Below the pieces are notes generated by a model. The model searched no databases, was not told the DNA's origin, and saw only the letters and a program-made list of their open reading frames with translations. From contig JAJPHL010000031.1 in assembly GCA_021325275.1 (NCBI GenBank), forward strand, positions 5,096 through 69,095: a stretch of DNA of 64,000 nucleotides, written 5' to 3'. The stretch comes from Terriglobia bacterium. GTDB taxonomy: Bacteria; Acidobacteriota; Terriglobia; JAJPHL01. Positions 11,817 to 19,990 of this stretch are shown piece after piece (positions within the stretch are counted from its first letter, which is position 1; the number at the start of each line of letters is the position of its first letter). The position numbers and the translations under genes are program-made.

Positions 11817-12026
11817 CTGATCGCGGCAGTTTATCACAGGAGAGTTTTGCGGAACTCGCATCGGGAACCATCCGGCTGCCTGGTTTCGCGGACCGCTTTC
11901 CATGCCGCAACAAACTCACGACAGGACTCAAATCGGGAGCAAGAAAATAGTTCCAGTACCGACGATCCAAACCACTTAGCGCGGCGACGTGCTAGACTTT
12001 CCATTTGCTGTTTTGAATCGAGCGTC

Positions 12027-14492
12027 ATGCCGTTAGCTTCCCAGCGTTCCGCGCCTTCCCTTCGCAGCCTTTTGCCGCTGGCGCGATACGCGCCAGATTT
12101 AAAACTGCAAACGCTGGCTCTGGGCGTCGATAATCTGCGCATCGATGTGCGGATGAGTCCGCGGCTGGTCACGGCTCTCTCGCGATATCAGTTCGGACTC
12201 TTCATCAAGTACAGTAACGCACGCCGTTTCCTCGACGGTTTGCCAGACGTGCCAACCGCCGCCGATCGGAATCAACTGAAGCAACTGATTTCCGAAGTGC
12301 TGCTCGGCGCGCTGAATCAAGCGCGCGCGCGAAAGCTGCCGGAACTCGATTTGCTCGCGAATCTTGCGGTGCTGAAGTATGTGGCGTATGAAGCGCGTCA
12401 GAATTACGACTTCATTTTGCTGCAAGGCAAGAATAAAGCGCGGCAATTTGAGGGTCCGCGCCACACCACCAGCCCCCGGGCGGCGGAATTTCAGCAGACC
12501 ATCAACGATTTTCAGACGGCGCGCAAGCAGACCCTACGCCTGGTCACGCAAGACGTCCAGCGCATCGTGAATGAAGTGCAGGCCGACAGCGTGCGCAAGA
12601 CGCGGCAATCGCTCTCCGGCATCGAAGCGGCGAATTTGTTTCCGTATTTCTCCAATCCCCTGCTCTACGCCGAAAACGGCCGCGACGATTACACGCACTT
12701 GGAAAAATACGTGATGATCGGGAACTACTCGAACGATCCCGACCGTTTCGATTTTGTCGACGAATGGCTGCGCTCGTTTCTGCGCGACGTGGATCAAGAA
12801 GGTCCCGAGGCCAAGGAATTGGCGGCGGCGGTGGCGCGCGAAGAAGCGCTCGGCACGCGCATGGAGGAATTCCGTAAGACGTATATCCCCACCGGCAAAT
12901 CGCGCGGCGTGCTCGGCAAGTGGTTCAGCACGAGCTCCGATCCACCGGTGGTCCCGATGCCGGCGGAGAAATTAGCCAAAGAAGTGGCGACGCAAGCGCG
13001 GCAATTGATCGACGCCAATGCGCAGGTGCAGCAACTCGCAGCGCATTACGAACAAGTGATCGCCGAGTGGATGAGCGTGCCGGAAAACGCCGAGGACCTT
13101 CTGGAAATCGCGCGGAACGAGCGCCAATTGGAAGACGCGCGCCGCCGGTCGGATCACGGCAAAGTCGCGCAGTTGGAGCAACGCATCGAGGCGCAGAAAT
13201 TCCTGGTGGACGAGCTGTACCTGCGCACGGAACGGGCCGGCTTGCTGCCGTTTCTCTTCGCGACGTATGAAGTCGCGCGCATCTATGCGGATTTTTGTCC
13301 GCCGATCAATCCGCAAATCCTCAAGCAGGCGCTGTTAAAACCGGACGAGCGCGAAAAGGTCAACACCATGATCCGGCACTATCGCATGCCGGACAGCCGC
13401 ATCAACGTGCTGAAAGACGCGGCGGAACGCGTGCGCGCGGCTTCCCCGCTCGATCTACGGAAGGCGATGGTGCGTTTCGCCGGCGACTACTTCCGGCATC
13501 ACCGCGACGCAAGGAATCAGGCGGCCGTGCAAGCGCTCTTCGACCGCTTGCACATGCCGATGGAAGATCGCGCCGAGGAGTTGTCGCGCATCAACGGCAC
13601 GCTCTACGAGTTCCTGATCTCGAGCGAAGAGCAATCGGTGGAGCGCCGCGTCACGGGTCACGTGATTTTGAAGGCCGATATCCGCGACTCCACGCGCCTG
13701 ACCACCGAATTGCTGGCGCGCGGCATGAATCCCGCCAGTTATTTCAGCCTGAACTTTTACGATCCGCTGAACAAACTCCTGCCGCGTTACGGCGCGGAAA
13801 AAGTATTTATCGAAGGCGACGCGGTGATTCTGGCGTTGTTCGAGCGCGAAGGCGGGCGCAGTCACACCGTGGGCCTGGCGTGCGGATTGGCGCGCGAAAT
13901 GGTGGAAATCGTGAAACTGTACAACGCCAAGAGCGAAGCGGGCGGCTTGCCGAAGCTCGAAATCGGCATTGGCATTACTTTCCGCGACACCGCGCCGCTC
14001 TATTTGCTCGACGGCGAGAATCGCATCATGATTTCCGACGCGCTGAATCTCTCGGATCGGCTCTCGGGATGCCACAAGCTGGCGCGGAAATCGCTGCCGG
14101 TGAATAAGAGCGCGTTCAACGTTTTCATTTTCCAAACCATCAGCGAGGAAACGGCGGCCGGCGCGATGGATGAATTCCTGGTGCGCTACAACGTGCAAGG
14201 CATTTGCTTGAGTGAAGACGCGTTCGAGAAACTGCGCACCGAGATTCGCTTTTCCACCGTCGAAACGGACTTGCCCGCCTTGTGGGGCACCGAGCGCGTC
14301 ACGCTGCACTCGGGCGCGGTGCCGCTGTCGACGGAAGTGTATCAGCGCCTGGTGGTCCGCGAAGCGCTGGTCAGTTGGGTGGACCCGCACACCTTTGCGC
14401 TGAAGGAATGCACGTCGCGCCGGTACTTTGAATTGTGCACGAACAAAGTGGTGTACGACGAGACGGACAAGCTCGTCTCGGGCGGAGCATGA
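12027..14492 (+). CDS. Large soluble protein with C-terminal class III nucleotidyl cyclase-like domain
   Basis: ILKADIRDST, FIEGDAVIL, IGIGI, SDALNLSDRLSG motifs; ~550-aa helical N-terminal region without TMs. Confidence 0.75.
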   Translation: MPLASQRSAPSLRSLLPLARYAPDLKLQTLALGVDNLRIDVRMSPRLVTALSRYQFGLFIKYSNARRFLDGLPDVPTAADRNQLKQLISEVLLGALNQARARKLPELDLLANLAVLKYVAYEARQNYDFILLQGKNKARQFEGPRHTTSPRAAEFQQTINDFQTARKQTLRLVTQDVQRIVNEVQADSVRKTRQSLSGIEAANLFPYFSNPLLYAENGRDDYTHLEKYVMIGNYSNDPDRFDFVDEWLRSFLRDVDQEGPEAKELAAAVAREEALGTRMEEFRKTYIPTGKSRGVLGKWFSTSSDPPVVPMPAEKLAKEVATQARQLIDANAQVQQLAAHYEQVIAEWMSVPENAEDLLEIARNERQLEDARRRSDHGKVAQLEQRIEAQKFLVDELYLRTERAGLLPFLFATYEVARIYADFCPPINPQILKQALLKPDEREKVNTMIRHYRMPDSRINVLKDAAERVRAASPLDLRKAMVRFAGDYFRHHRDARNQAAVQALFDRLHMPMEDRAEELSRINGTLYEFLISSEEQSVERRVTGHVILKADIRDSTRLTTELLARGMNPASYFSLNFYDPLNKLLPRYGAEKVFIEGDAVILALFEREGGRSHTVGLACGLAREMVEIVKLYNAKSEAGGLPKLEIGIGITFRDTAPLYLLDGENRIMISDALNLSDRLSGCHKLARKSLPVNKSAFNVFIFQTISEETAAGAMDEFLVRYNVQGICLSEDAFEKLRTEIRFSTVETDLPALWGTERVTLHSGAVPLSTEVYQRLVVREALVSWVDPHTFALKECTSRRYFELCTNKVVYDETDKLVSGGA

Positions 14493-14774: not shown

Positions 14775-14874
14775 GGAGGGCGATTGGGTCTGGTGACTTG
14801 CCCGGCCTTCAAAGCCGGCGGCTGCTACGCGAAGGCATGGCAGCGGTGAGTTCGATTCTCACCGCCTTCCGCCA
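14775..14874 (+). tRNA. selC: tRNA-Sec (anticodon TCA)
   Basis: 8-bp acceptor GGAGGGCG/CGCCTTCC, discriminator G, encoded CCA; anticodon loop CTTCAAA (TCA 14809-14811); long variable arm; TTCGATT T-loop; TATAAT at 14761-14766. Confidence 0.95.
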
Positions 14875-15046: not shown

Positions 15047-15781
15047 CTACTTCAACGTCTCGGCGAGCTTCTGGAAAGCGCGTTCGGCCTGCGGCTGGTC
15101 GAACACAGGACTATCGGGCACGGTCCAACTGTGCAGCGCGCCGGTGTACGTTTCGCTCTCATAGCGCCCGCCCCACGCCGCGAGCGCCGCTTCGAATTTC
15201 GCGATCGCTCCCGCCGGCATGCTCTTGTCCTGATCCGCGTGACCGAAGTACAGGCGGGCTTTCACGCGCGGAAGCACCAAGTGCGGACTCGCCGGCGAAT
15301 CCGTGCACAATCCGCCGCCGTGGAACGACGCCGCGGCGCAAACCGCGTCGGGACGCGCCGCCGCCGCGCGCAACGCCATCGCGCCGGTCAAGCAATATCC
15401 CACCACGCGCACCGGCCCCGCCTCGACACTCGCGTGCGACGCCAGAAAATCGACGTACGCCGCGCCGTCGCGATCCATCGCCGCCGCGTCGAGCGGCGCC
15501 ATCAGTTCCTTCATGCGTTTCAAGGAACGCTCGTCCATCTGTCCGGGCTTGCGTGGAAAATCGAAAACCGGCAAACGGCTGGTTCGATAGAAAACGTTCG
15601 GCAGCAGCACGGTGTATCCCAACGCCGCGACCCTTGCCGCCATCTGGCGATTCGCTTCGCGGACTCCTCCAATGTCGGTGAAATGAATCACGCCGGGCAA
15701 GCGCGCGGAATCTTCGGGACGGAACAGCACCGCTTCCGTCACGCCGTCGGCGGCGCGGATTTCGAGTGTTTGTTCGACCAT
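15047..15781 (-). CDS. Dienelactone hydrolase family protein
   Basis: DIGG.R, GYCLTG nucleophile, SFHGG, HADQD, GALHSW. Confidence 0.9.
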   Translation of the reverse strand: MVEQTLEIRAADGVTEAVLFRPEDSARLPGVIHFTDIGGVREANRQMAARVAALGYTVLLPNVFYRTSRLPVFDFPRKPGQMDERSLKRMKELMAPLDAAAMDRDGAAYVDFLASHASVEAGPVRVVGYCLTGAMALRAAAARPDAVCAAASFHGGGLCTDSPASPHLVLPRVKARLYFGHADQDKSMPAGAIAKFEAALAAWGGRYESETYTGALHSWTVPDSPVFDQPQAERAFQKLAETLK

Positions 15782-15785
15782 GTTT

Positions 15786-15819
15786 GGCGTCCCCGAACCG
15801 GGGACTAGTTTTTCGCGCC
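15786..15819 (-). promoter_or_regulatory. Putative bacterial SECIS element
   Basis: On the minus strand right after UGA: GGCG..GTCCCC-GGTTC-GGGGAC-GCC hairpin with G/U in the apical loop, no U-tract. Confidence 0.7.
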
Positions 15820-16305
15820 TCAACCAGCCTTCACCTTCGGCACGTCCTCGCCGGCGTGAAAGAGTGAGAAGCCCTTCTTGCCGGTTAGCGTTTCGAGCTT
15901 GGCCATCATCCTCAGCAAATCTTCGCGCGCGAAGCCCACGCAACTCTCCAGGATCTCGCCGTTCTGTGCGATCAGGAAAATCGACGGCACGTGGGTCAAT
16001 CCGTAGGCGTTCGAGGTGGGGTAGTCGTCGGTGTCTTCGAGCAGCAGCGGAAAGTGCACACCGAAGTGTTTCGCGAAATCGCGCGTCGAGCGCTCATCGT
16101 CTTGCGACACGCCCCAGACGCAGCCGAAATGCTTGGCGGCGCGATCGAGAAACGGCAGCGTGAACTGGCAAGTGGGACAACTCACCTTGAAGAAGGCCAC
16201 CAGTTGCGGCCCCGCCGAAAGCGCGTCGCGCAGGGAGTACGTTTTTCCGTCGATGGCGGGCCAAGTGAATTCCGGAGCGTGAGTACCAGTTTCAATGGCA
16301 GGCAT
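15805..16305 (-). CDS. AhpC/TSA-TlpA-like redoxin, probable selenoprotein (C-terminal KAG-U-GAKN)
   Basis: Thioredoxin fold APEF..FFKVSCPTC..VSQD..VPSIFLI; in-frame TGA at 15822-15820 followed by GGC GCG AAA AAC TAG and a SECIS-like hairpin. Confidence 0.8.
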
Positions 16306-16667: not shown

Positions 16668-16716
16668 GACGATGTGACGATATATGGAAATAATGACGAA
16701 CCAGGAGGACGAGATC

Positions 16717-17649
16717 ATGTCGCAAGGCGTGGCGAAAGGTTGCTTGTTGGCGTTGTTGGCGGCGACCGTTTTCGCGGCCGCGCCGGCAGCACAGAAACAG
16801 GCGGCTCCCGCTGCATCGCAGGCCAAACCGGCGCCCGCGAGTGAATACGTCGGATCGGATACGTGCAAGACGTGTCACGAAGGGCCCGCCAAGAGTTTCG
16901 AGCATGGGCCGCATTGGAAGACCGAGCTGAGCAAACACCAGGGACCCGAGTGGCAAGGCTGCGAAGCGTGCCATGGACCCGGCAAAGCGCACGCCGAATC
17001 GGCCGATGCCGCCAAGATCATTCGCTTCCCCAAATTGAAGCGCGAGGAATCGTCGAAGCGCTGCTTGCAATGTCACGAATTCGGCGAAGAGCACGCCAAT
17101 TTTCTGCGCTCGCAGCATCTCAAGAATAACGTCGGCTGCATCGACTGCCATTCCATCCACAGCGCCAAGGTGGAAAGCCATTTGATGAAAGCCTCGCAGC
17201 CGCAACTTTGTTACGGTTGCCATCAGGAAGTGAAGCCGGACTTTTCCAAGCCCTTCCACCATCGCGTGAATGAAGGATTGGTGAAATGCTCCGATTGCCA
17301 CAATCCGCACGGCGGATTCCTGACGCATCAGTTGCGCGCCACGGCCGCGCAGGATCAAGTTTGTTTCACTTGTCACACCGACAAGGCCGGTCCTTTCGCA
17401 TGGGAACACGGCCCGGTGAAGACGGAAGGTTGCGTGGCGTGTCACATGCCGCATGGTTCGTCGAATCCGCGTTTGTTGAAACGCAGCAACGTGAATTTGC
17501 TCTGTCTCGAATGTCACACGTTCACGGTGGATTCGGCGGCTCCGGCCGCGCCTTCGTTCCACAATCAAGCGCAAAAGTATCAAGCATGCACGCTGTGTCA
17601 CACCGCGACTCATGGGTCGAACACCGATGAATTCTTCTTCAAACCGTAA
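16717..17649 (+). CDS. Decaheme c-type cytochrome, DmsE/MtrA/MtoA/PioA family
   Basis: Signal peptide; ten CxxCH motifs (CKTCH, CEACH, CLQCH, CIDCH, CYGCH, CSDCH, CFTCH, CVACH, CLECH, CTLCH); GPFAWEH..PHGS; RBS AGGAGG. Confidence 0.93.
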   Translation: MSQGVAKGCLLALLAATVFAAAPAAQKQAAPAASQAKPAPASEYVGSDTCKTCHEGPAKSFEHGPHWKTELSKHQGPEWQGCEACHGPGKAHAESADAAKIIRFPKLKREESSKRCLQCHEFGEEHANFLRSQHLKNNVGCIDCHSIHSAKVESHLMKASQPQLCYGCHQEVKPDFSKPFHHRVNEGLVKCSDCHNPHGGFLTHQLRATAAQDQVCFTCHTDKAGPFAWEHGPVKTEGCVACHMPHGSSNPRLLKRSNVNLLCLECHTFTVDSAAPAAPSFHNQAQKYQACTLCHTATHGSNTDEFFFKP

Positions 17650-19990
17650 CGCATGTTTGTATGTCGGGTTGTCTGTGGCGCTCCTTGCGGCGGCCGCGGC
17701 AGCGCAGCCGCCGGCGCCGCTGGCCCCGCCGTTGGAATCAGACAAGCCCACCATGGCGGGCAGCTATGAAATCCGCCAGACCATCGAGTTCGGCGGACAC
17801 GCCACGCATTTCGGCGGAAACTCCGGCATGTGGGACACCTTCGTGAATCTCGGCACGGGTCCGCGCCTGCTCGATTACACGCTGGACCTGCATTCGCCCA
17901 ATCACAACGGATTGCTCTTCGACGATTTGACGTTCACCAATTTCGGCTATGGCGGCGATCCTAACAACGTGAGCCGGCTGCGCATCTTGAAAAGCAAGTA
18001 TTACAACTTCACCGGCACATTTCGCCGCGACGTCAACGTGTTCGATTACGATTTGTTCGCCAATCCGCTGAACCCATCGAACTCCAACCCCAACTTGCCG
18101 GTGCTGCAATCGCCGCACGAAATGTTCCTCGTCCGGCGCATGACCGACCTGAACCTGACGCTGCTTCCGGTGAGCAAAGTGCGTTTCCGCCTCGGATGGT
18201 CGCGCGTGACGAATCAAGGAACCTCGTTCACCACGTATCACGAAGGCACCGAGACGCTGCTCGACGAGCCTACGTTGAATATCACCGATACCTATCGCCT
18301 CGGTGTCACCTTCAAGGTTCGTCACCGCACCAGTTTGCAGTTCGATGAAATGTTCACGCACTTCAAGGGCGACACCTCGGCGACGCTGGCGTCGAGCGCC
18401 ACGATGGCGGGGTTTGGTTTCCCGTCGTTTCAATTGGCCGGCAATATTCCCGTAAATCTTGGACTGCCGTTCAACACGGGAGCCACCACGCCGTGCGCCG
18501 CGCCGGTGTTGGCCACGGGATTCGCGAATCCCACGTGCAACGGCTACCTTAGCTTTGTGCAATCCGGACGCACACGCAATTCGTTTCCCACCGAGCAAGC
18601 CAGTTTTCAGAGCAGCGAAAGTCCGCAGTGGGATTTTTCGGGCAAGCTCAGCTACACCGACGCCACCGCCAATCTGCCTTCCTACGATCAATTCTTCAAT
18701 GGACTCGTTTCGCGCTCGGCCGTTCGCACCGAGGGAATCACCGGCGCGTCGACGGCGAAGCACATTGCCCTGAACGGCGATTTCGCGGCGACCTATCACG
18801 CCACCGAGAAGTTGCGCATCGTCGACACGCTGCGCTACTCCGCGTTCCGCAATCCGGGATCGTGGAGCCTGGTGACCGCCGATACGTTCGGCGCGTCGCT
18901 GCTGGTGAATCCCAATACGTTTTCCACGACAACGTGTCCGTCGCCGTTTACCGGCGCCGGCTGCCCGCAGCATACCTCGAGCTCCAGCGCCGATCTCACG
19001 GTCGATAATCGCACCGACTTCATGGCGCAGCAGCAAACCATCAACACGTTCGAGTTGGAATACGATTTCACGCCGAAGCTCATGGCGCACCTGGGCCATC
19101 GCTACGAGCACCGCGAGATCACCGACAATGTGGTCGACTATTCGGTGCAAACGTTCCTGCCCACGCTGCCGAATCGCGGCGCGTGCGCGGGCATCGCGCT
19201 CAGTTCCACGGGAACGTGCACCACAACGGTGCCGAGCATCGACAACGGCAACTTCTTCGTGCCGATCAACTCGAATTCGGCCATCGGCGGCTTTACCTAT
19301 CGGCCCAACGAGAAATTCCGTTTCACGGCCGACGCGGAAATCTTCTACGCCGACAACGTATACACACGCATCAGCCCGCGCCATTTGCAGGACTATCGGT
19401 GGCGCGCGGTCTACAAGCCGCTTCCCTGGGTGAACCTGGGGTCGACCATCCGCATCCAGGAGAATCGCAACAATACGGCGGCCATCGGCAACTTGCAGCA
19501 CAATCGCAATTACGCGTTCAACGCCGTGATGGCTCCGCCTTCGGCCAACTGGGGCTTCGATTTTTCGTACAGCTACCAGGACATTTTCTCGCAAACCAAC
19601 ATTTGTTTTGTCTCCACGCCCGCGCCGCTGAATTCGCTCAGTTGCGGATCGCCGTACCTGCAGGGACTGTCGTATTACACCGAACTCGCGCACAACGGCT
19701 CCACTTCGTTCTTCTTCAAGCCCGCGTCGAACGTCACGGCGGGCGTCGGCTACACGATCACCAGCACGGCGGGAAACACCTTGATCCTGAATCCGATTGC
19801 GCCGACCGGGCCGCTAAGCTATAACTACCACCTGCCGATGGTCTCTCTAGCCGCTCAGCTTTCCAAGCACGTGAGCTACAAATCGAGTTGGAGTTTTTAC
19901 GATTACCATGAGAAATCGGCTCCGGGACCGACGCTGCCGCGCGGATTTCACGGCGGCGTGATCACCATGTCGCTGCGGTACTCGCTGTAA
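17627..19990 (+). CDS. MtrB/PioB-like outer-membrane beta-barrel associated with the decaheme cytochrome
   Basis: Signal peptide, aromatic-rich amphipathic beta strands, C-terminal SLRYSL; overlaps the decaheme gene end. Confidence 0.8.
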   Translation: MNSSSNRNACLYVGLSVALLAAAAAAQPPAPLAPPLESDKPTMAGSYEIRQTIEFGGHATHFGGNSGMWDTFVNLGTGPRLLDYTLDLHSPNHNGLLFDDLTFTNFGYGGDPNNVSRLRILKSKYYNFTGTFRRDVNVFDYDLFANPLNPSNSNPNLPVLQSPHEMFLVRRMTDLNLTLLPVSKVRFRLGWSRVTNQGTSFTTYHEGTETLLDEPTLNITDTYRLGVTFKVRHRTSLQFDEMFTHFKGDTSATLASSATMAGFGFPSFQLAGNIPVNLGLPFNTGATTPCAAPVLATGFANPTCNGYLSFVQSGRTRNSFPTEQASFQSSESPQWDFSGKLSYTDATANLPSYDQFFNGLVSRSAVRTEGITGASTAKHIALNGDFAATYHATEKLRIVDTLRYSAFRNPGSWSLVTADTFGASLLVNPNTFSTTTCPSPFTGAGCPQHTSSSSADLTVDNRTDFMAQQQTINTFELEYDFTPKLMAHLGHRYEHREITDNVVDYSVQTFLPTLPNRGACAGIALSSTGTCTTTVPSIDNGNFFVPINSNSAIGGFTYRPNEKFRFTADAEIFYADNVYTRISPRHLQDYRWRAVYKPLPWVNLGSTIRIQENRNNTAAIGNLQHNRNYAFNAVMAPPSANWGFDFSYSYQDIFSQTNICFVSTPAPLNSLSCGSPYLQGLSYYTELAHNGSTSFFFKPASNVTAGVGYTITSTAGNTLILNPIAPTGPLSYNYHLPMVSLAAQLSKHVSYKSSWSFYDYHEKSAPGPTLPRGFHGGVITMSLRYSL

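Follow-up and report, generated by a model that had tools for sequence, protein, structure and literature searches.

Analysis of 64,000 nucleotides of DNA from Terriglobia bacterium (Acidobacteriota; assembly GCA_021325275.1, contig JAJPHL010000031.1, positions 5,096 to 69,095 of the forward strand; this whole stretch is hereafter called the window) led us to a redoxin gene on the minus strand whose reading frame is interrupted by a TGA codon close to its 3' end. We put the probability that the gene encodes a genuine selenocysteine (Sec)-containing redoxin, decoded through a short hairpin that follows the UGA, at about 85%. The annotated open reading frame (ORF; 15820..16305, minus strand) comprises 161 aa and terminates at the TGA (15822-15820), after which GGC GCG AAA AAC TAG continues in frame, as described in an original prediction made from the letters of the window. 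That prediction proposed a hidden 166-aa selenoprotein with a CPTC site, for which the conserved TGA, the conserved tail, the Cys-containing homologs and the hairpin reported here now provide support. In the extended protein the Sec lies five residues from the C-terminus, in the context …[KR]-x-G-U-G-[SA]-K-N, and the CPxC motif is retained. Short in-frame extensions past a stop codon are common by chance; the comparative data lift the predicted UGA-tail-hairpin signal far above that level.

A six-frame search covering 60 relatives and the window's own genome (61 genomes) detected the redoxin protein in 45/61, and 39 of these rows showed a single in-frame TGA with a match reaching the last residues, while L042 was recognized as the fortieth on inspection. 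For the comparison we compiled 110 orthologous loci, made up of 30 fetched relatives' loci, one of which is the window itself, and 80 further ones, together representing 107 distinct sequences with a protein identity of about 30-100%; some genomes are represented by two loci, e.g. L057 and L023. TGA occupies the Sec position in 30/30 and 80/80 of these loci, hence in 110/110, and in 107/107 distinct sequences, and a pattern in which homologs end at …AG with varied first stops and no downstream conservation was not seen. Within the 30 loci, [KQR]-x-G stands ahead of the TGA (M-S-A in L029) and 4-5 codons separate it from a second stop, the tails reading GSKN, GAKN, SSKN, RSKN, HSKN, GSKG, GSKS, GSRN, GANR, GAKNA, GSKNA and HSKSD, with G-S-K-N as the commonest tail across all 110 loci. 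At the codon level, the tails of the 107 sequences use GGG 38, GGC 30, GGA 10 and GGT 7 times for Gly, TCG 55, TCC 27, TCA 7, TCT 6 and AGC 3 times for Ser, AAG 55 and AAA 45 times for Lys, and AAC 76 and AAT 26 times for Asn, and the second, true stop is TAG in 60, TGA in 36 and TAA in 7 cases, the remaining 4 having a longer tail. An invariant TGA combined with synonymous tail codons and a variable second stop is the signature of a translated sequence and not of an RNA motif. The predicted tail is thus under selection at the protein level, its Ser being drawn from both TCN and AGC.

The family extends well beyond these loci. Scanning the motif F[FY]KxSCP[VT]CQ over 185,579 species genomes returned at least 600 stretches, of which 599 of the 600 listed encode a relative, so that at least 599 species-representative genomes carry one, and the best 80 of the at least 600 stretches all belong to metagenome-assembled genomes (MAGs) named Acidobacteriota, Terriglobia or Terriglobales. 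When 401 genomes from across the phylum were sampled, a single TGA appeared in 40 rows, or in 38 once the unpublished G205 and G083 are set aside. Six further rows were inspected: four that had automatically been flagged 'none' turned out to be three Sec forms with divergent tails (VSRSAA, LGRNR) and one frameshifted copy, and the other two, flagged '1 TGA', have the tails VSRSIA and TSRNAA. In ortholog L132 (G354), a frameshift lies ahead of a conserved …VKPG-TGA-GAKN end.

Public protein collections present this family in shortened form. As anticipated in the original prediction, annotation truncates the protein: 117/120 of the best database homologs stop precisely with the Gly that precedes the TGA, the remaining 3 being fragments, and their source names are 'peroxiredoxin' (JGI) or 'TlpA disulfide reductase family protein'. 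A profile search over 1.84 billion representatives yielded 303 matches at E up to 1e-30. Of the matches listed, 149 (P0121-P0269) were checked at the C-terminus, where 111 of them finish with PG, AG or SG. The proposed search for Cys at the UGA position was successful in that nine homologs (P0214, P0248, P0201, P0234, P0142, P0148, P0195, P0252 and P0256) continue with Cys at the Sec position, for example, together with the same tail, …KPGCGSKN in P0214, …RPGCSSKN in P0248, …LGCASKN in P0201 and …MGCGAKNFMEK in P0234. Aligned to the redoxin of the window, these nine Cys forms show an invariant G-C opposite G-U. The Cys-form sequences derive from ordinary gene calls, and the TGC codon was read at the DNA level in three of the loci (L123, L139, L140). 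A maximum-likelihood tree built from 35 Sec forms and 9 Cys forms (without the frameshifted L132) lacks backbone resolution; it is compatible with one or with several origins of the Cys forms, and we claim no direction of change.

The hairpin downstream of the UGA can be drawn in the window as GUCCCCG-GUU-CGGGGAC or GUCCCC-GGUUC-GGGGAC (fold -12.9 kcal/mol), its first G being the G of TAG. With numbering from the U of UGA (+1), the stem begins at +18 and its loop at +25, and the hairpin lies in the 23-nt spacer that separates the TAG from the next gene. This overlap with the TAG had been recognized in the letters of the window, and the hairpin proved to be conserved with compensatory changes in the orthologs; the 32 nt that hold it reach z = -2.97 (p = 0.01) in the window sequence. 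All 30 loci (30/30) fold such a hairpin, the stem beginning between +15 and +22 and the loop between +23 and +29, with minimum free energies (MFE) between -6.3 and -16.6 kcal/mol and a mean z of -2.2 vs shuffles. A stem of at least 5 bp is present in 106/107 distinct sequences, the loops being GGUC in 57, GUC in 24, GGC in 7 and others in the rest, and the 107 sequences contain 37 different 6-nt arms, with both C-G and G-C occurring at each stem position. As controls we took other ORFs from the same loci, each 150 aa or longer, and examined their ends: a hairpin of at least 6 bp with a loop start at +23 to +27 was found in 94/107 family sequences vs 39/746 other ORF ends, and with a loop beginning with G in 86/107 vs 8/746. 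Covariation was scored for a gap-free subset of 58 of the 107 sequences (23 distinct) with 4-nt loops, in which all six stem pairs change on both sides; the score of 0.85 compares with 0.215 for shuffles (0/500 reach it) and 0.08-0.18 with slid partners. Submitting the raw 46-nt downstream segments to MAFFT and RNAalifold gave no consensus structure, because the loop lengths differ, and no Rfam family matched the hairpin.

In the 3/3 Cys-form loci the hairpin is absent (MFE -1.9 to -2.2 kcal/mol). The distance from UGA to loop in a bacterial selenocysteine insertion sequence (SECIS) is quoted as 16-37 nt in PMC10778597, and the loop starts at +23 to +29 fall within this range. The genome itself provides two controls: selD (…AG-U-ASK…) is followed from +17 by the hairpin GUCCAA-AGUUC-UUGGAC, which is close to that of the redoxin in size, place and xGUUC loop, and fdhA has a loop containing GUU after its UGA. 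The original prediction had also drawn a lower GGCG/CGCC stem, of which a GGC/GCC pairing does exist in the window; this lower stem is formable in just 11/107 sequences, or 26/107 with 0-3 nt of slack, and is not part of the conserved element.

A number of observations weigh against the selenoprotein reading. Folded alone, the 56-nt window sequence is unexceptional (z = -0.58 vs shuffles), 13/107 sequences lack a hairpin of the size and position given above, and a figure of 95.7% paired positions is partly circular because the segments were chosen for pairing; the evidence for a real hairpin is instead that predicted stems vary while loop and position stay the same. The orthologous loci come from related lineages and their counts are not independent trials. 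On the plus strand, the palindrome 15789-15805 followed by TAGTTTTT scans as terminator-like, and the T-run on this opposite strand is the complement of the Lys-Asn codons; a terminator role is at most secondary. Finally, Sec insertion and the full-length product are deduced here purely from comparative data.

These points bear on an alternative in which the TGA is a real stop, the tail is untranslated and the conserved downstream bases form an RNA element, either a terminator for the convergent selC (the gene for tRNA-Sec) or another opposite-strand transcript, or a stabilizing 3' hairpin. Besides the unremarkable single-sequence fold and the terminator-like arrangement of the plus-strand hairpin 15789-15805 and TAGTTTTTCG, this idea draws on the position of selC, which is convergent and near in many relatives: a tRNA-Sec lies within ~0.8 kb of the redoxin 3' end in 16/29 relatives' loci and is convergent in 14 of them. 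However, the hairpin is kept among L043-L122, although tRNA-Sec is near the redoxin in only 2/31 of the loci scanned there (L043-L073), and in 55/110 loci the next gene is of the peptidase M28 family; all but one of these loci belong to L043-L122, in which this gene is on the same strand. The loop, moreover, is conserved as GGUC on the sense strand, tail codons vary synonymously under constant amino acids, the TGA is invariant under a variable next stop, natural homologs carry TGC and the same tail without the hairpin, and the gene was not found in eight selA-negative relatives outside the carrier set. Taken together, we regard a real stop at the TGA as very unlikely.

The capacity to insert Sec is present in this genome. 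As had been proposed as a check, selA, selB and selD were searched for and all scored over the curated cut-offs (523, 334 and 365 bits, selD itself having a TGA), and fdhA (formate dehydrogenase alpha), also with an in-frame TGA, is split over two contig ends (L124, L125; contigs C27, C55). The nearby tRNA-Sec, predicted to lie ~1 kb away, was confirmed, with 931 nt between selC and the redoxin TAG. Within the 61 genomes, selA was found in 37/40 of those with the TGA form, and the 3 without it are MAGs of 62-72% completeness; the TGA form was found in none of the eight other selA-negative genomes outside the carrier set, which gave only distant paralog matches or none (E up to 1e-10). The gene thus appears to have been lost there and not converted to a Cys form. 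The SelD of this genome (L001, contig C2) is a selenoprotein with the local motif G-U-A-S-K, which matches the G-U-x-S-K of the redoxin tail.

One could still picture the UGA being read through as Trp, Cys or Arg by a near-cognate or suppressor tRNA, stimulated by the hairpin, since hairpins past stop codons can stimulate read-through. Against this, Cys is the sole residue that homologs place opposite the UGA, the Sec machinery is complete and goes together with the TGA form, and in size, spacing and G-U loop the hairpin is like a bacterial SECIS and matches that of selD in the same genome; we therefore consider such read-through extremely improbable. For the selenoprotein reading, we propose that SelB and Sec-tRNA(Sec) would recode the UGA, directed by the short G+C-rich hairpin with its GGUC, GUC or GUU loop. 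As the hairpin starts at the true stop, the SECIS would lie almost wholly within the 3' untranslated spacer.

The redoxin itself matches the Pfam families AhpC-TSA (PF00578, 51 bits, cut-off 26) and Redoxin (PF08534, 40.3 bits, cut-off 26.6), and the combination of a Pfam domain over cut-off, a CxxC motif and a cis-Pro identifies it as TlpA/ResA-like. In the alignment of 30 orthologs, K40, C43, P44, C46, Q47, P51, Q68, F77, P107, G124 and U162 are invariant. The N-terminus has no hydrophobic signal in the sequence, so we judge the protein to be cytoplasmic. Peroxiredoxins carry their peroxidatic Cys in the motif PxxxT/SxxC. This motif is absent from the redoxin: the sequence before C43 reads …QLVAFFKVSC, with Lys at position -3 and Val at -7, and the PrxQ and Bcp models reach 17-29 bits vs cut-offs of 140-260. 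C46 is replaced in the Sec form L131 (G170; CPTS) and in the Cys form P0148 (CPVV), and C43 is retained in both, which points to Cys43 and the tail residue as the core pair.

On this basis the tail selenolate may be the reactive end of the protein, and the flexible tail could bring Sec162 to Cys43 to form a selenenylsulfide that Cys46 would resolve, leaving a Cys43-Cys46 disulfide. An external reductant would then recycle the redoxin, in many lineages probably the single-Cys flavoprotein of the CoA-disulfide reductase (CoADR)/NADH oxidase type encoded upstream. We hold this specific relay, including the reach of the tail to Cys43, as a tentative proposal whose chances fall somewhat short of even.

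The flavoprotein, a pyridine-nucleotide disulfide oxidoreductase with Pyr_redox_2 and dimerization domains, is encoded directly upstream on the same strand in 17/110 loci, 13 of them among the 30 diverse relatives, an adjacency that suggests a dedicated reductase. Its active-site motif SY[SG][AT]CGL contains the sole invariant Cys in an 11-sequence alignment, C279 (GDC motif) being nearly invariant. Three neighbours scanned with TIGR03385 scored 384.4, 393.4 and 403.6 bits vs the equivalog cut-off of 578.8, so that by the NCBI rule the flavoprotein is not a bona fide CoADR and is a member only of the wider single-Cys group of CoADR, NADH oxidases (Nox) and NADH peroxidases (Npx). An ortholog of at least 46% identity is present in 23/61 genomes, all 23 of which carry the Sec redoxin, and in 0/21 redoxin-negative genomes of the 61; in no Cys-form locus examined does the flavoprotein adjoin the redoxin. 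Two findings count against the relay chemistry: 17/40 redoxin-positive genomes have no flavoprotein ortholog, and the window genome's own copy is located on another contig, in an uninformative context of acetamidase and DUF7948 genes. The flavoprotein can thus not be the universal reductant. Some CoADR-like proteins are known selenoproteins; among the flavoprotein-ortholog matches, one in-frame TGA occurs in G045 and one TAA each in G001, G053 and G060.

A further-reaching version would combine the Sec redoxin and the upstream flavoprotein into a two-protein, NAD(P)H-driven 'split' thioredoxin-reductase design that acts on selenium or persulfide species and helps to keep the Sec trait in Terriglobia. 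Here the lone Cys of the flavoprotein and the tail Sec would form a mixed selenenylsulfide, as CoADR does with CoA; this bond would then be reduced, and the freed selenolate arm would service either the CPxC of the redoxin or an external substrate. Such a substrate range and such a role in maintaining the trait could follow from the arm motif G-U-x-S-K, which copies the Sec loop of SelD, and from the position of the gene beside selC in many lineages. We regard this design as speculative and rather doubtful.

Alternatively, the protein may be a real selenoprotein in which the Sec tail serves as a ligand or carrier arm, for a metal or metalloid, for selenium or for persulfide, for instance by delivering selenium to SelD, and not as a redox relay. 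CoADR-like flavoproteins include persulfide and polysulfide reductases, and selC adjoins the gene in 16 of the 29 relatives' loci. The tail G-U-x-[SA]-K equals the local G-U-A-S-K motif of the genome's own SelD, a SelD UxxK motif is given in Table 1 of PMC13188914, and section 7 of that review suggests metal binding as a possible role of the near-C-terminal Sec of UXX-star and SaoC proteins. On the other hand, the invariant CPxC and the cis-Pro fit thiol-disulfide redox chemistry, a resemblance of four residues to SelD can be due to chance, and no metal or selenium transport genes occur among the conserved neighbours identified. We judge a carrier function to be unlikely.

The features of the locus are compiled in Table 1. 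The dienelactone hydrolase gene starts 23 nt past the TAG and is probably co-transcribed with the redoxin gene; it adjoins the redoxin in 1/110 loci, the window's own, and not in a relative of the same genus. Upstream of selC, an 881-aa ORF at 11847-14492 (plus strand) has no Pfam or NCBIfam match; in 25 loci, homologs of it are encoded close to the redoxin and selC. Two further plus-strand ORFs overlap by 38 nt, one at 16684-17649 encoding a multihaem cytochrome c with doubled CXXCH and c7 and c3 domains, and one at 17612-19990 encoding 792 aa without a family match.

Table 1. Coordinates of the redoxin gene, its recoding elements and adjacent genes in the window.
Feature	Position	Strand	Basis
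Sec redoxin coding sequence, 166 aa, TlpA/ResA-like thioredoxin fold with ~35-aa C-terminal extension …KVKAG-U-GAKN	15808..16305	-	translation with TGA = U
CPTC redox motif, Cys43-Pro-Thr-Cys46	16168..16179	-	sequence; C43 and C46 invariant in 30/30 orthologs
UGA predicted to be decoded as Sec, residue 162	15820..15822	-	TGA in 110/110 loci; TGC in natural homologs
Tail codons Gly-Ala-Lys-Asn (GGC GCG AAA AAC), also the UGA-hairpin spacer	15808..15819	-	amino-acid conservation
True stop TAG	15805..15807	-	sequence; second stop variable in orthologs
SECIS-like hairpin of 7 bp closed by a GUU loop (alternatively 6 bp, loop GGUUC)	15789..15805	-	fold, orthologs, covariation
selC, encoding tRNA-Sec with anticodon UCA; convergent to the redoxin gene	14775..14874	+	ARAGORN; Rfam RF01852, 69.4 bits
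Dienelactone-hydrolase-family gene, context only	15047..15781	-	Pfam DLH, E 4.8e-36

Acidobacteriota rank among the commonest bacteria in soil, and the selenoprotein gene is widespread in this phylum and of unusual design. The truncation of public proteins at the TGA is a systematic error that conceals the proposed reactive residue of the protein. Besides SelD and FdhA, the redoxin is the sole TGA-containing gene that was looked for and found in this genome, and it may therefore be a main reason why the lineage keeps the costly Sec machinery. The gene also offers a natural bacterial SECIS sited past the stop codon and a thioredoxin-fold enzyme that adds a Sec arm while the CxxC cysteines are kept, and its conserved flavoprotein neighbour makes this Sec-arm design directly testable.

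Comparison with known systems places the redoxin closest to ResA, TlpA and DsbE, with which it shares the fold family, the CxxC and the cis-Pro, Bacillus subtilis ResA (3c71, E 4.7e-23) being the best solved relative. This match covers only profile positions 6-134, and none of the solved chains found contains an equivalent of the Sec-bearing last ~35 residues. ResA, TlpA and DsbE are extracytoplasmic, whereas the redoxin has neither a signal peptide nor a membrane anchor and is cytoplasmic by sequence. No specific NCBIfam model for the redoxin was found in release 20, where the eight matches at E up to 0.01 are of the ResA, DsbE, PrxQ and StoA type and far below cut-off. A G-U-G-[SA]-K family is likewise absent from the 119 prokaryotic selenoprotein families in Table 1 of the 2026 review (PMC13188914), and the literature searched held no published description of the Sec redoxin, which supplementary tables may list.

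The family could nevertheless be identical with the 'UGC-containing Prx-like / TlpA disulfide reductase family' of the GOS survey (2008; reviews 2022 and 2026), which would make our finding a re-discovery. Both have a TlpA/peroxiredoxin (Prx)-like domain, are predicted selenoproteins and are without a dedicated NCBIfam model; in PMC2398784 and in Table 1 of PMC13188914, the UGC entry is TlpA-like (cd02966 / pfam00578) and reported to be commoner in non-marine samples. The NCBI name of the truncated member P0056 is 'TlpA disulfide reductase family protein', and deep-Sep counts three 'known' selenoprotein genes in an acidobacterium, whose names are not in the main text (PMC12013277). The description of the UGC family nonetheless sets the redoxin apart: 'UXC' is a variant of the Prx-like active-site motif UXXC according to Table 3 of the Sargasso paper (PMC1088965), so that its Sec is in the active site, while the redoxin keeps CPxC and has its Sec in the tail. 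A U-G-C motif occurs in 0/107 redoxins, as Cys is never found at position Sec+2, which is Ser or Ala, and NCBIfam offers only generic TlpA/ResA/DsbE models, all far under cut-off. We thus consider a re-discovery quite improbable.

A Sec located a few residues before the stop is also known from UXX-star (NF041114, NF041211), KCU-star (NF033934) and SaoC, according to Table 1 of PMC13188914; in these proteins, too, the SECIS must lie past the coding region. They are unrelated to the redoxin, which pairs its tail Sec with an intact CxxC thioredoxin fold and gave no match at E up to 0.01 to the hidden Markov models (HMMs) of UXX-star, VPGUxxT and hypothetical protein DG (NF041114, NF041211, NF041383, NF049953) or to KCU-star.

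The loop of the Escherichia coli fdhF SECIS reads GGUC. The redoxin hairpin resembles SECIS elements of this type in being short, in having G-U in the apical loop and in its spacing inside 16-37 nt, and a SECIS placed after the stop codon works for a C-terminal Sec, as engineered in the 3' untranslated region for thioredoxin reductase in E. coli (Arner et al. 1999, cited in PMC10778597). The redoxin arrangement differs from the engineered and fdhF elements in being natural and conserved, with a predicted stem of only 5-9 bp and no conserved lower stem.

The linked flavoprotein shares its domains and single active-site Cys motif with CoADR, NADH oxidase and NADH peroxidase (TIGR03385) and scores below the cut-off of that model; its pairing with a Sec redoxin is not described in the literature consulted. 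A resemblance to mammalian thioredoxin reductase had been put forward in the original prediction as a swinging redox arm. Like the Gly-Cys-Sec-Gly arm of that enzyme (PMC10778597), the redoxin Sec would sit at the very C-terminal end, on a short tail with flanking Gly residues, in combination with a separate dithiol centre, and the genetic link to a flavoprotein disulfide reductase is a further point of likeness. The redoxin differs in that its G-U-G has no adjacent Cys (not G-C-U-G) and in that the tail is attached to a small thioredoxin-fold protein and not to the flavoprotein, so that the swinging arm remains an analogy. The redoxin may function in a similar manner, yet it is not a member of the thioredoxin reductases, and the likeness is one of design and not of homology.

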